IMG/VR virus record: IMGVR_UViG_3300022719_000055
Location: 1 to 24,821 of that record
Origin: a virus
Taxonomy: Duplodnaviria; Caudoviricetes
DNA: 24,821 bases
Reading direction: 5' to 3' (one strand)
Part shown: positions 12,892 to 18,266 of the stretch, piece after piece
Layout: every line of letters begins with the position of its first letter
Numbering within the stretch: the stretch's first letter is position 1
Notes under the pieces: generated by a model
What the model saw: the letters and a program-made list of their open reading frames with translations, nothing else
The model's database searches: none
What the model was told of the DNA's origin: nothing
Position numbers and translations under genes: made by a program

Positions 12892-13230
12892 TCAGTGGCT
12901 GACCAGGGTGACTTCAATGTCGTCGTCAGCTGATGCGGCGCCCATGCTGCGGGCGACGCCCACGCCTGAGTCAATTGGTATCAGCCGGCCTGTGGTGCCA
13001 ACCTCAAGCTCGACACCAGCCGCGCTGATGGTGGCACCGGCCTTGGCTGCTGCCAGGCCCATGCGGTTGCACTGCACCCGTTCGCCGATTTCGGCATCGT
13101 GCAGGGCAATACCAAAGATGGCGGCGTCGGGCGCTGCCACCGCACCGGCGTAGCTGACTGCCTGGCCCTTGCTGATGGCGGCAGTGGCAGTGACGCTGCC
13201 CTGCCAGATTGGAATGTTGAGCGCGCTCAT
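12892..13230 (-). CDS. Capsid cement/decoration protein (DUF2190-like)
   Basis: 112 aa, Ala/Gly-rich, between scaffold and capsid. ATGA overlap with the protease stop. Confidence 0.8.
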   Translation of the reverse strand: MSALNIPIWQGSVTATAAISKGQAVSYAGAVAAPDAAIFGIALHDAEIGERVQCNRMGLAAAKAGATISAAGVELEVGTTGRLIPIDSGVGVARSMGAASADDDIEVTLVSH

Positions 13231-13718
13231 GCTGATACCTCCACAGCCTTGACGGCGGTAATAAAGTCACACTTGTTGGCCCGCTGGTATTCCAGCGCTT
13301 TGGCGTGCAGCTCGGCACGCTCGGCATCCACGGTGCTGCCGGCGGGGGCGGCAAACTGCACCGCTGTGCCACGCTGGCCAGCGGCAGCCTGCTCGGACTG
13401 CAGCTTCTGCAGCTCGGGCTGCACCGGCAGTTGTGCGACGAAGCTGGCGAAGAAATCTGCCGGCGTCTTGCGCACTGGTGCACGGCCGTCGCCCTGGCTA
13501 AAATCCATCTCCGCCTCGGCGTTGAGGTTGGCCATGAAATCGGCCATGCCAGCAGCCTGTGCCGGGCTCAGCCGACAGTCGTCGATGGCCTGGTTGATCA
13601 CCTGCTGCGCAGCACTGCGCCGGGTTGCCAGTGCGAACTCGGCGTTCTGCTGACGAAGCTGGTCGCGCTCGGTTTCGGCGGCGTTAAGCCGCTCCTGAAT
13701 TTCTGCGGTGTCGGTCAC
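13227..13718 (-). CDS. Internal in-frame scaffold protein (Mu gpZ-like, ~163 aa)
   Basis: In-frame GTG at 13718 with GGAGA 7 nt upstream (13726-13730), at the start of the coiled-coil region. Confidence 0.55.
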   Translation of the reverse strand: MTDTAEIQERLNAAETERDQLRQQNAEFALATRRSAAQQVINQAIDDCRLSPAQAAGMADFMANLNAEAEMDFSQGDGRAPVRKTPADFFASFVAQLPVQPELQKLQSEQAAAGQRGTAVQFAAPAGSTVDAERAELHAKALEYQRANKCDFITAVKAVEVSA

Positions 13719-14600
13719 TGGAGTGTCTCCGGGTTTGGGTATGTGTCGGGAAAACGATGGCAGCCCGGATGAGTCCGGCTGCTCGATGGCCTCGGCGGCC
13801 AGCGTGCGCGACTGCTCGGCAAGCGCGTCGATGTCGCTCTGCGGTATTAGCCGATCGGCCACGTCGAGACTGAATCGATCAAGCGTCCACTCGCGGAAGC
13901 GGCGGAAGAACCGCGCCAGCGCATTGGGGGTGAATGAATCTGGCATGGCGAAGTCAGGATTACTCAGCGTCTCCTTGATGGTTTCGACGGAGACCCCGAG
14001 CGCGCTGGCAAAACCCTTGATCCTCTCTTCGGGCGGGTTGTCAATCTCGCCACGCAGAATCTGGCTGACCGTTGACTCTGATATGCCTGCAGCGTCAGCA
14101 AGATCGGCCGTGCTCACTGACTTCTCTTCCATCAGACGGGAGAGCAATGCGCCAAGCGCTGACTTGCGAAAATCAGCCACCTCAAAATCGATGGCGTCAG
14201 CCGGCGCAGAATAGTTCAGCGCTGCCAAGCCATCCACGGCAGGCGGGGCAGCGCCCAGCCAGCCCACGTGCAGCAGCCGCCAGCCGCCCTTGTTGTCGGG
14301 CGCAATGCGCACCGAGCGCTTGGCGTAGTGGCCAGCGGCGACAGCGGCGGAGAACTCGGGAGCCACCTTGTCGAACTTAGCCTGCAGGCGGTCGCCAACA
14401 CGGCGCAGCGCAGCGGTCCAGCCAAACGCGGGGTCGTTGGTTTTGGGGTGGCCGACCACTGCGGGTGCCGCATCGGCGGCGGAGTGGTTGGCGACAATGG
14501 CGTCCAGATCGGACTCGCTGAAATCGCGCGTGACACCAGCCGAGTCGGTGCGCCGCCCGGCTTTGAAAATGTCGATCCAATCTGCAAAAGGATTAGTCAT
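13227..14600 (-). CDS. Prohead protease/scaffold (Mu gpI-like) with an inserted XRE-HTH domain (~457 aa)
   Basis: 'IDIFKAG', 'APAVVGHP...PAFGW' and 'LLHVGWLGAAPPAVDGL' protease motifs. Coiled-coil C-terminus. Start taken at ATG 14600. Confidence 0.9.
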   Translation of the reverse strand: MTNPFADWIDIFKAGRRTDSAGVTRDFSESDLDAIVANHSAADAAPAVVGHPKTNDPAFGWTAALRRVGDRLQAKFDKVAPEFSAAVAAGHYAKRSVRIAPDNKGGWRLLHVGWLGAAPPAVDGLAALNYSAPADAIDFEVADFRKSALGALLSRLMEEKSVSTADLADAAGISESTVSQILRGEIDNPPEERIKGFASALGVSVETIKETLSNPDFAMPDSFTPNALARFFRRFREWTLDRFSLDVADRLIPQSDIDALAEQSRTLAAEAIEQPDSSGLPSFSRHIPKPGDTPVTDTAEIQERLNAAETERDQLRQQNAEFALATRRSAAQQVINQAIDDCRLSPAQAAGMADFMANLNAEAEMDFSQGDGRAPVRKTPADFFASFVAQLPVQPELQKLQSEQAAAGQRGTAVQFAAPAGSTVDAERAELHAKALEYQRANKCDFITAVKAVEVSA

Positions 14601-14652
14601 GCCGCCATTCTTGCAGCGGCGCACGCAATTGTAAGGGGGAACGACTTCCCCC
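14600..14652 (-). promoter_or_regulatory. Activator-dependent late promoter (Mor/C-type)
   Basis: Dyad GGGGGAA-N4-TTCCCCC at 14635-14652. -10-like AAGAAT at 14612-14607, 6 nt before the ATG. No good -35 and no RBS. Confidence 0.6.
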
Positions 14653-14665
14653 GATGGGCGGGCAC

Positions 14666-14691
14666 AAAAAAGCCCCGGCGTCCCGGGGCTT
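14666..14691 (-). terminator. Rho-independent terminator
   Basis: Minus strand reads AAGCCCCGG-GACG-CCGGGGCTTTTTT. Confidence 0.9.
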
Positions 14692-14753
14692 GTTGCCGCT
14701 CGTCAGCGGCGGCTCTCTCAGTGGGTTTTAAGATATCGTTATTAAGTGCCGAA
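14666..14753 (-). ncRNA. Candidate small RNA (~85 nt)
   Basis: Bounded by its own sigma70 promoter and a terminator. No ATG/GTG/TTG start. Internal hairpin GCCGCT-GACG-AGCGGC. Confidence 0.5.
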
Positions 14754-14758
14754 GCTTA

Positions 14759-14786
14759 ATTCTAACTTGTGCGTTGCGGATGTCAA
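14759..14786 (-). promoter_or_regulatory. Sigma70 promoter TTGACA-N16-TAGAAT
   Basis: -35 at 14786-14781 and -10 at 14764-14759, immediately after the aca-like stop. Confidence 0.7.
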
Positions 14787-14791
14787 TCGGG

Positions 14792-15028
14792 TCAGGCTAC
14801 CCGGTTCCGTGCGCACCACCACACTGCAGGGTGCATGCGGCGTTCGCCGTTCTCCCATTTTTGCCAGGTGCGGAAATGAGAGAACACCCGTTCAGCGCAC
14901 AGCTTCTGGGCATCGGTGACGCCAATATCACGGCTGTCCTGGATGAGCACGCGCAGTGCGCGGACTTCGGCAGGCGAAGGGTTTGCCGCCGGGTTTTCCC
15001 GGCGGCTTCGCTTGGGGTGGTTGCTCAT
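14792..15028 (-). CDS. Anti-CRISPR-associated (Aca10-like) HTH regulator (78 aa)
   Basis: 'PSPAE' and 'RTWQKWENGERRMHPAVW' match the Aca10-type pattern as I recall it. GGGAG RBS. Located just upstream of the Mu-like protease gene. Confidence 0.75.
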   Translation of the reverse strand: MSNHPKRSRRENPAANPSPAEVRALRVLIQDSRDIGVTDAQKLCAERVFSHFRTWQKWENGERRMHPAVWWCARNRVA

Positions 15029-15044: not shown

Positions 15045-15323
15045 CTATCGGGACGCTTCCTGCCATTCGCTCAGAGCTTCTGAGGCCATTTTGGTTGCCT
15101 GCACAGCCTCAGCTACGTGATCATTCCAAGCCTCATCAATAACTTCGGGGGCCTCATCGTCATCTGGATCAACCCCCCCCATCTCTAGCCAAACAGCGTC
15201 AAACCAGCCTGACGGGAAGTCGAAAGACTCAAGCTTGTCGCCGGATTCGGGAACATAACCGTTTATATCAGCGAAGCGCTGGAGCTCGGTGCCAAACTGG
15301 CCGAAATTGGTGTGGTGAAACAT
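15045..15323 (-). CDS. Small highly acidic protein, candidate anti-CRISPR/anti-defence protein (92 aa)
   Basis: 21 D/E versus 4 K/R. AGGAG RBS. First gene after a consensus promoter and directly upstream of the aca-like gene. Confidence 0.65.
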   Translation of the reverse strand: MFHHTNFGQFGTELQRFADINGYVPESGDKLESFDFPSGWFDAVWLEMGGVDPDDDEAPEVIDEAWNDHVAEAVQATKMASEALSEWQEASR

Positions 15324-15389
15324 AATCTTCTCCTATCTGAGCCCCTGAATCCCCGAGGCGCGGTGCAGTCGTTATTGACTACAGTTCCT

Positions 15390-15417
15390 ATTATATGCCC
15401 ATTGGGCATAATGTCAA
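15390..15417 (-). promoter_or_regulatory. Consensus sigma70 promoter with an overlapping palindromic operator
   Basis: TTGACA (15417-15412)-N16-TATAAT (15395-15390). Perfect inverted repeat TATGCCCA-T-TGGGCATA at 15394-15410. Confidence 0.9.
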
Positions 15418-17162: not shown

Positions 17163-18266
17163 GTGACCAAGGCCATTTCAAAGAAGGCAGGCGAAGTCTC
17201 ACACGTGAGACCCCACCAGGAAAATGCCGAGCGCTCACACGTGAGCGCTCCGAAGGAAAATGCCGAGCGCTCACACGTGAGCCCTGATCTTTCGCAGTTG
17301 CCACAGTTCCAGCTTGCCGCTGATCGCATACGCCAATTCTCACTGGCAGATGGGACACTGGACAAGGCAGCAGAGTTCTACTTGCCGATATCCGGCGGCG
17401 AGCTGCTGCAAGGCCAGGCGCTTGATCAGTGGATCCAGCATGCTGAATCGACCAACTTTATGCTCATGGCTGGCCGTGGCCTGGCCTTCCTCATCAAGAA
17501 GACTGAGCTGCCGAGCAACACTTTTTATGCCTGGCTGCGCGACAACGGCATTCCAAAATCAAGCGCTCATCGATGCATGGCGGTCGCCAATATGTTCGGC
17601 GTGGTGTCGGACGACGTGGCGAAAAAGATCATCACTCTGGAAACGCACAAAGCTTATGCCCTGACCCAGCTCAAGGGTGATGATGAATCCTACGCGGCAC
17701 TAGAAAAGCTGTGCAGCGAAGGCAAGCTGGAAGAAATATCACCGCTCAGCCGGCAGGATTTTCTTGCCATCATCAAACAGCACAAGCAGGCCAAGGCTGA
17801 GCAGAACAGGCAGGACAAAAAGATCGACGCGCTGCAGCAGAGAATCGACGCGCTGCAACCACAGAGTGTTGGCGATGTTCCGGAGAACGTCAGCGCCGCG
17901 CGGATAGAGGTCAGCCAGATCCTGTTTACCGTGCGCGATCTGCTCGAACGACTACACGCCATAGTGCATGAGACTGCACATGGCTCGCACCTGTCGAGCG
18001 ACCCAGTTCTGCGGGCCAGACATCAGGCCCTGATTGTTGGACCGCTTGTCGCCACCATGAGAGCTATCCGCGCCTACTGGACCGAGGTCGCTACCGAGAT
18101 TGACATGTTTGAAGATCTCGGGGACAAGCTCGAAGATGCCGAGTGGTTAAGCCCGGAAGAGAGCCGTGCTGCGCTGGAGCGCGCAGAACATGTGCTCGGC
18201 CTGTACGCCAGAGAATCGCGCTATGGTCTCATGGATAAGCGGCTGTTCTCCGCACGGGGCAAGTGA
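17163..18266 (+). CDS. Early protein preceding the transposase (DUF3102-like N-terminal region plus coiled coil)
   Basis: AGGAG/GGAG RBS. 'GRGLAFLIKKTEL...FYAWL...GIPKSSAHRCMAVA' pattern. Usual position in B3-type phages. Confidence 0.7.
   Translation: MTKAISKKAGEVSHVRPHQENAERSHVSAPKENAERSHVSPDLSQLPQFQLAADRIRQFSLADGTLDKAAEFYLPISGGELLQGQALDQWIQHAESTNFMLMAGRGLAFLIKKTELPSNTFYAWLRDNGIPKSSAHRCMAVANMFGVVSDDVAKKIITLETHKAYALTQLKGDDESYAALEKLCSEGKLEEISPLSRQDFLAIIKQHKQAKAEQNRQDKKIDALQQRIDALQPQSVGDVPENVSAARIEVSQILFTVRDLLERLHAIVHETAHGSHLSSDPVLRARHQALIVGPLVATMRAIRAYWTEVATEIDMFEDLGDKLEDAEWLSPEESRAALERAEHVLGLYARESRYGLMDKRLFSARGK
17196..17282. repeat. Three palindromic CTCAC-AC-GTGAG units at a 36-bp period
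   Basis: Cores at 17198, 17234 and 17270. Exact 29-bp repeat at 17218-17246 and 17254-17282. Confidence 0.9.

Follow-up and report, generated by a model that had tools for sequence, protein, structure and literature searches.

A promoter-terminator unit behind an aca10-like gene of a Mu-like phage and its possible relation to crRNA-like counter-defence RNAs

The slot that separates an aca10-like gene from the head protease gene in a partial phage sequence of 24,821 nucleotides (the whole stretch that was analysed, here called the window) is a real promoter-terminator unit. A separately promoted short non-coding RNA, predicted from the motifs of this unit, is plausible, because its promoter (P2) lies far beyond chance and a homologous promoter is found in the same slot of another phage. 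The reading that we favour, with a probability of about 0.35, is that the P2 RNA is a crRNA-like RNA that has diverged and would serve counter-defence by occupying or redirecting type I Cas proteins of the host. It draws on the above-chance promoter, on the homologous promoter of a sister unit, on the type I-C repeat marks of that unit in phage G005 and on the link between Aca10 and type I-C anti-CRISPRs. Against it stand the lack of repeat marks in the window, the confinement of the homologous promoter to one lineage, the absence of the unit from phage G004, the changes in phage G001 and the status of the neighbouring anti-CRISPR gene as a candidate only.

The predicted acr-aca10 operon of a Mu-like phage

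The window is part of a Mu-like transposable phage. Its plus strand encodes a transposase, a transposition ATPase and HTH regulators, and its minus strand the head and tail proteins; Burkholderia phage KS10 is among the best matches of the transposase (about 41% identity). The slot sits on the minus strand between a gene for a 78-aa HTH protein and the head protease gene, and every element listed in a preliminary description of this region is likewise carried by the minus strand. The HTH gene (14792..15028, minus strand) encodes an Aca10-like repressor that matched a 65-aa regulator, PDB 7xi5 (E 2.8e-8), which we take to be Aca10, as it fits the 65-aa length listed for that protein. Sequence similarity and a palindromic operator in the operon promoter, the Aca10 features considered for this gene, are both present. 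The operon promoter, P1 (15390..15417, minus strand), is a sigma-70 promoter scoring 12/12, with an 8+1+8 palindrome of the Aca10 operator type at 15394-15410.

The P1 palindrome resembles Aca10 site IR2 (PMC9410881), and the operon recalls acr-aca10 of Pseudomonas citronellolis from the same report, where a similar small HTH gene ends the operon and a palindrome with a 1-bp centre lies between the -35 and -10 elements of a promoter with a 16-nt spacer. The window differs from that locus, as described there, in that its upstream gene falls in no known Acr family and a second promoter follows aca. Aca10 has been linked to type I-C Acrs (PMC9410881). The upstream gene of the window, an acidic 92-aa ORF (15045..15323, minus strand) of no known family, is an anti-CRISPR candidate by position only. 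Its relatives in viral contigs amount to three loci at 37-38% identity, and one of these, L279, has neither an aca10-like gene nor a P2-type unit. In unrelated phage contigs, the family also occurs as the N-terminal part of a longer ORF (L279:2501-2902); in L279 this ORF comes first behind a promoter-like region and points away from an HTH gene.

The 5′ UTR of the acr-aca10 operon contains a conserved motif at 15341..15362 (minus strand), which may be the predicted Aca10 UTR RNA motif described in PMC13551039. The leader motif was also seen in L001, L002, L048, L142, L152, L154 and L303, in L142 between genes; in L001 the sequence of the first leader hairpin differs while its pairing is kept. 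Directly upstream of acr-aca10 in L048 (2074-3969; phage G002), a csf3-like gene (TIGR03116, E 4.6e-21, below cut-off) was found together with a CysH-like gene, and the same block recurs in L303 (phage G004), which suggests a type IV-like locus beside the anti-CRISPR operon.

The P2 unit and its predicted RNA

The preliminary description had placed a near-consensus promoter 5 bp past the aca-like stop codon, and this is where P2 was found. P2 (14759..14786, minus strand) is a sigma-70-type promoter, TTGACA-16-TAGAAT, that scores 11/12; its -35 element TTGACA (14786-14781) starts 5 nt after the stop codon (14792-14794) and is separated by a 16-nt spacer from its -10 element TAGAAT (14764-14759). 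The window has three promoters of at least 11/12, where 40 shuffled windows averaged 0.05, and shuffling the P2 intergenic region itself gave such a promoter in 0.06% of cases (n=5000). P2 has no Aca10-type operator, the best match within 14661-14800 having 8/16 mismatches.

The predicted RNA would be non-coding and ~87 nt long (14666..14753, minus strand; start placed by its spacing from the -10 element), with an AU-rich 5′ part followed by an inner hairpin, the terminator and a U tract. The inner hairpin (14695..14710, minus strand; 6 bp and a GACG loop in the predicted fold) and the intrinsic terminator motif (14666..14691, minus strand; stem 14691-14670), which also has a GACG loop, were both recovered as they had been described. 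The fold of a 94-nt stretch gave z = -4.97; without the terminator the value was z = -3.03, with 1/200 shuffles as good.

Within the slot, only the P2 promoter and the terminator stand above chance, and the remaining elements of the preliminary description, although present, fall within it. A 6-bp hairpin was seen in the RNA body in 6% of 3000 shuffles. ATG, GTG and TTG are indeed missing from 14753-14670, but all three were missing from 17% of 5000 shuffles as well. The dyad ATTAAG-N8-CTTAAT (14741..14760, 6-bp arms) does overlap the end of the -10 element and the predicted start, but a 6-bp dyad was obtained in 10% of 3000 shuffles of the 70-nt promoter region. Across the dyad, TTAA words recur at 14728, 14742 and 14756 with an exact 14-bp spacing (14728-14759). 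The leaders of P1 and P2 have an 8-nt word in common, an event that 8% of shuffles reproduce.

Together, the dyad and the TTAA repeats with their 14-bp spacing could form an operator or recombination site that keeps P2 shut, in which case the slot would be a DNA site and not an RNA gene. The placement of the dyad and the regular spacing of the three words would suit such a site; however, the dyad is within chance, its half-site is absent at the other two strong promoters and it is not kept in the sister unit, and we regard this explanation as highly improbable. The unit had also been called stand-alone. It does have its own promoter motif, but its terminator is at the same time the first terminator after the acr-aca operon, and since the same terminator lies directly behind aca10 in phage G004, where P2 is absent, the unit is not fully stand-alone.

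No homologue of the RNA body was found in the viral contigs, phages or plasmids searched. A 16-nt word of the body had four matches in viral contigs, all of them unrelated, and a loose promoter pattern occurred at 119 or more loci, with none like the unit among the 45 listed. As a motif, the hairpin is not conserved: it had 91 exact 16-nt matches in viral contigs, none of which lay in this promoter-terminator layout on inspection. Blastn of the P2 region gave no phage match at E 0.01 and, at E 10 against phages and plasmids, generic terminator matches only, of which the two inspected were unrelated; the sister unit of G005 and G001 likewise gave nothing beyond generic terminator matches. Scans of metagenomes and genomes with the Aca alignment returned seven and two distant loci, respectively, and no close relative. 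Rfam, searched with E up to 5, had no match for the element, and the window as a whole gave sub-threshold miRNA and RsmY matches only, as did eight related loci. Opposite a tail-region gene, on the other strand, 1525-1633 gave a weak RsmY-family score (22.4 bits against a gathering threshold of 57; E 0.1) that is probably due to chance.

Several known RNA classes were considered and rejected. Csr/Rsm decoy RNAs present several GGA motifs in loops; the window RNA contains one GGA, which lies in the terminator. For an antitoxin of a type I toxin-antitoxin pair, the plus-strand ORFs of at least 40 aa proved to be shadows of aca or of the protease gene. A hammerhead, of which the core word is present but no downstream partner motif, and likeness to boxB/nut, tracrRNA or vsgRNA were dropped after an informal comparison in which few bases agreed with the motifs of these classes.

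A base-pairing sRNA of the Hfq type, which in the lysogen would use its AU-rich 5′ part to pair with mRNAs of the host, is an alternative that fits the anatomy of the predicted RNA, since an open AU-rich 5′ end, a hairpin and a terminator with a U tract are typical of this class; phage sRNAs of such size are also known, for example StxS (74 nt; PMC7547250). However, no seed is conserved, and a target search of the kind that had been proposed earlier, run against phage mRNAs, gave energies of -6.6 to -23.5 kcal/mol for 12 start regions compared with a background of -15.7 +/- 4.6 kcal/mol (708 tiles), so that no partner stood out. We consider this explanation unlikely.

The sister unit and its CRISPR-repeat features

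Twenty-three aca10-like loci were compared, leaving out near-duplicates and matches judged spurious, and whole-record scans found a promoter homologous to P2 in two of them, from phages G005 and G001. These two phages represent one lambdoid lineage (34 differences in 8233 nt, 99.6% identical). Their Aca is the closest relative of the Aca10-like protein of the window (83% identity), and they have the same P1 and leader. The sister promoter, which reaches into the end of an aca gene that is duplicated in tandem, scores 11/12 in G005 and 10/12 in G001. It has in common with P2 a TTGACA followed by the word CCGCAAC, a combination seen at 0/170 other TTGACA sites in the loci examined. The spacers of the two promoters differ (16 and 17 nt), yet both promoters have kept a near-consensus -10 element, a sign that transcription may be selected for.

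The sister unit (L002:2942-3036 in G005; L001:3091-3185 in G001) consists of this promoter, a predicted start that coincides with a type I-C repeat end, a stretch of 21 nt and a terminator; the terminator comes 57 nt after the promoter and is followed by the endolysin, terminase and head genes of the lambdoid phage. In G005 the predicted RNA start matches the 3′ end of type I-C repeats at 12/12 positions, a result equalled in 0/5000 shuffles for a motif that was spotted first and tested for significance afterwards, and this is the sole exact match in 308 kb on both strands. The 21 nt that follow lead into a terminator with an I-C-like loop. In the solitary-repeat table the loop word is found 66 times in one orientation and 57 times in the other, and among the matches listed all 30 rows carrying it are I-C. 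In G001 the -35 element is weakened and the repeat end is reduced to 10/12 by two changes. The sister unit holds 4 of the 34 differences between the two phages, one of them in its -35 element, in a comparison where differences cluster elsewhere too.

RNAs with which phages counter CRISPR beside acr genes have been published as Racrs (PMC10651486), as Cracr RNAs, which are viral crRNA-like RNAs (bioRxiv 10.1101/2024.10.29.618823), and as vsgRNAs (bioRxiv 2026.06.01.729453). A Cracr comprises a repeat-like part, a short spacer (17-21 nt for I-F) and a terminator, and I-C examples exist (bioRxiv 10.1101/2024.10.29.618823). The order of repeat, 21 nt and terminator in G005 fits the layout given there. 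Because only the 3′ end of the repeat would be transcribed, the G005 RNA may need no processing. The sister unit is thus a candidate for a ready-made, Cracr-like crRNA mimic, or else a leader of the pR′ type, and in G005 it is a stronger lead than the unit of the window. It may be among the published Cracr candidates; the titles and abstract openings of the papers found in the literature describe no RNA unit behind aca10.

The window unit resembles Cracrs, as they are presented in that preprint, in being phage-encoded and compact, with its own promoter motif and an intrinsic terminator motif, and Cracrs can accompany an acr gene. It differs in that its RNA has no recognisable repeat-like part or handle, whereas the handle is complete in G005 (12/12) and partial in G001 (10/12). 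Like Racrs, as characterised in PMC10651486, it is intergenic, lies in a phage and is within 1 kb of an acr candidate; in contrast to them, its RNA has neither a repeat match nor a processing site made of a stem plus handle. The best I-C repeat end in the window RNA agrees at 7/12 positions, with 90% of shuffles as good, and the best I-F repeat end at 9/13, with 14% of shuffles as good; neither lies after a hairpin. For other subtypes the coverage consists of the word searches that follow. Racrs are recognised by a match to a known CRISPR repeat with identity and coverage of 90% or more, a criterion approximated here by searching for words in a table of 2,194 solitary-repeat rows (PMC10651486 Supplementary Data 1): control words were found, and 0/15 words (8-9 nt) of the window element were. 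On the evidence of its letters, the window RNA is not a member of the Racrs, and as it fails the repeat features tested, the element was filed neither there nor under Cracrs.

These results do not support the original argument for an RNA anti-CRISPR, which had loosely likened the tetraloop stem and its A-rich tail to a solitary repeat: there is no Rfam family, none of the words was found and no repeat end matched above chance. What survives of the earlier sRNA claim is the separately promoted short RNA, made plausible by the promoter and its homologue. The accompanying idea of a paired protein and RNA counter-defence gains support from the sister phage and none from the sequence of the window.

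The two RNA bodies were also compared directly. Without the hairpin they show no likeness (86% of shuffles as good). With it, likeness is weak, as 32/3000 shuffles and 3/62 natural terminators score as well, and the inner hairpin of the window aligns weakly with the terminator hairpin of the sister phage. When the whole units were compared with the -35 element fixed, 18/3000 shuffles were as good. A covariance model of the sister unit picked the P2 slot as its only match in the window, at a non-significant E of 8.9, and found nothing in 32 other loci. With respect to conservation in relatives, on which the preliminary description had staked its proposal, P2 therefore recurs in one lineage, whereas the body recurs weakly.

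The junction with the head protease gene

In phage G004 (L286), the aca10-like gene is followed by ~20 nt, the terminator and the head protease gene, and P2 is absent. The G004 terminator is 91% identical to that of the window over 35 nt (E 3e-9). As it lies directly behind the aca10-like gene there without P2, the terminator belongs to the junction between aca and the head genes. Compared with this junction, the window appears to have a ~70-nt insertion composed of P2 and about 45 nt. The pre-terminator stretch of L286 resembles the inner-hairpin region of the window in a weak alignment that 108/5000 shuffles equalled.

This arrangement could be a transcribed relic, P2 and its leader having arrived with the acr-aca10 cassette from another phage, or having lost their payload, and now firing into a resident terminator; in that case the terminator alone would be of importance, the RNA being a by-product. 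The G004 junction and its likeness to the flanks of the insertion favour this explanation, as do the missing body homologue and the differences between G001 and G005 in the sister unit. However, the promoter scores 11/12 with correct spacing and has been kept in both lineages while the sequence between promoter and terminator diverged. We judge the relic to be a close rival, nearly as likely as the crRNA-like reading. Were it correct, the locus would be an ordinary moron of the acr-aca10 type whose terminator serves as an insulator.

The gene behind the terminator encodes a Mu-like head maturation protease of 457 aa with an inserted HTH domain (13227..14600, minus strand; start at 14600). The inserted domain spans aa ~146-208 and matches Pfam HTH_31 above the cut-off. 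Immediately upstream, at 14607..14652 (minus strand), we predict a leaderless late promoter, made up of a dyad with 7-bp arms (14652-14635) together with a -10-like hexamer that lies 6 nt ahead of the ATG. Relatives of the protease gene were collected at 44 loci, some of them redundant, of which 41 had enough upstream DNA, and they show a similar dyad and -10-like word at similar spacing just before the start codon. A Mor-family gene lies upstream of the protease gene in all five relatives tested, three of them above the curated cut-off. From this combination of dyad, -10-like word and Mor-family genes, the protease gene likely has its own activator-dependent promoter. A terminator-like hairpin precedes the protease gene in 14/41 relatives; in 0/41 do the 400 nt upstream contain a sigma-70 promoter scoring 10/12 or more.

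The terminator probably shields the head-protease gene. In work by Stanley from 2019, unrepressed acr transcription is said to harm the downstream protease gene. In phage DMS3, where as in the window an acr-aca cassette directly precedes the protease I gene, expressing the protease gene slowed growth by about 13% (PMC8027618), which would give a reason to insulate it. The window differs from the DMS3 acr-aca1 locus, as reported there, in having Aca10 instead of Aca1 and an extra promoter.

P2 could also be an attenuated late promoter like pR′-tR′ of lambda, its transcripts extending into the head operon when an antiterminator is at work. In G005 and G001, endolysin, terminase and head genes come directly behind the homologous promoter and terminator, and the -10 element there is followed by a -10-like hexamer; the window unit precedes late head genes too. 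The layout of strong promoter, short RNA, terminator and late genes is that of StxS, the pR′-tR′ by-product sRNA of Shiga-toxin phages, which shows that such a by-product can gain a function (PMC7547250). The window differs from the StxS locus described there in coming from a Mu-like phage, in which a late promoter separate from P2 is predicted, and in showing no antiterminator among the 30 window proteins scanned from this partial contig. Sigma-70 promoters are, moreover, absent upstream of the protease gene in the relatives, which have Mor-family activators and the dyad-type late promoter that is kept at 14652-14607 in the window. We find a pR′-like leader improbable for the window, and more plausible for the sister phage.

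Under the crRNA-like reading, P2 would drive a constitutive ~87-nt non-coding RNA that ends at the terminator common to the acr-aca10 operon and that descends from, or has replaced, a crRNA-like RNA, the two bodies presumably having a common origin. Since P2 has no Aca10 operator and P1 a perfect one, P2 expression may escape Aca10 and continue in the lysogen once the Acr burst has been shut off. The RNA could then act on, and possibly bind, type I Cas proteins of the host after Acr repression, while the terminator would keep transcription from both P1 and P2 out of the head protease gene. A broader version, about which we are doubtful, is that aca10 cassettes carry an exchangeable RNA slot in which an Aca-independent promoter makes a crRNA mimic, directed at type I-C in G005 and at another or a divergent Cas subtype in the window. 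The 5′ end of such a mimic would serve as the repeat handle and the terminator as the repeat hairpin; it would need no Cas processing, would be invisible to searches for solitary repeats, and would provide RNA-based protection that lasts beyond repression of the protein burst. If true, RNA counter-defence of the Racr and Cracr kinds would extend to aca10 cassettes, a permuted and processing-free crRNA mimic would have been missed by present repeat searches, and the timing of counter-defence would be divided, the protein inhibitor being repressed and the RNA constitutive.

Two further features of such phages were recorded. In a related Mu-like phage (L012:766-2445), another accessory cassette, which ends in an HTH gene and has no second promoter, is found in the same place before the protease gene. 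Elsewhere in the window, at 17198-17284, the start of a 367-aa gene located before the transposase gene contains three in-frame repeats of 36 nt, each with the palindrome CTCACACGTGAG.
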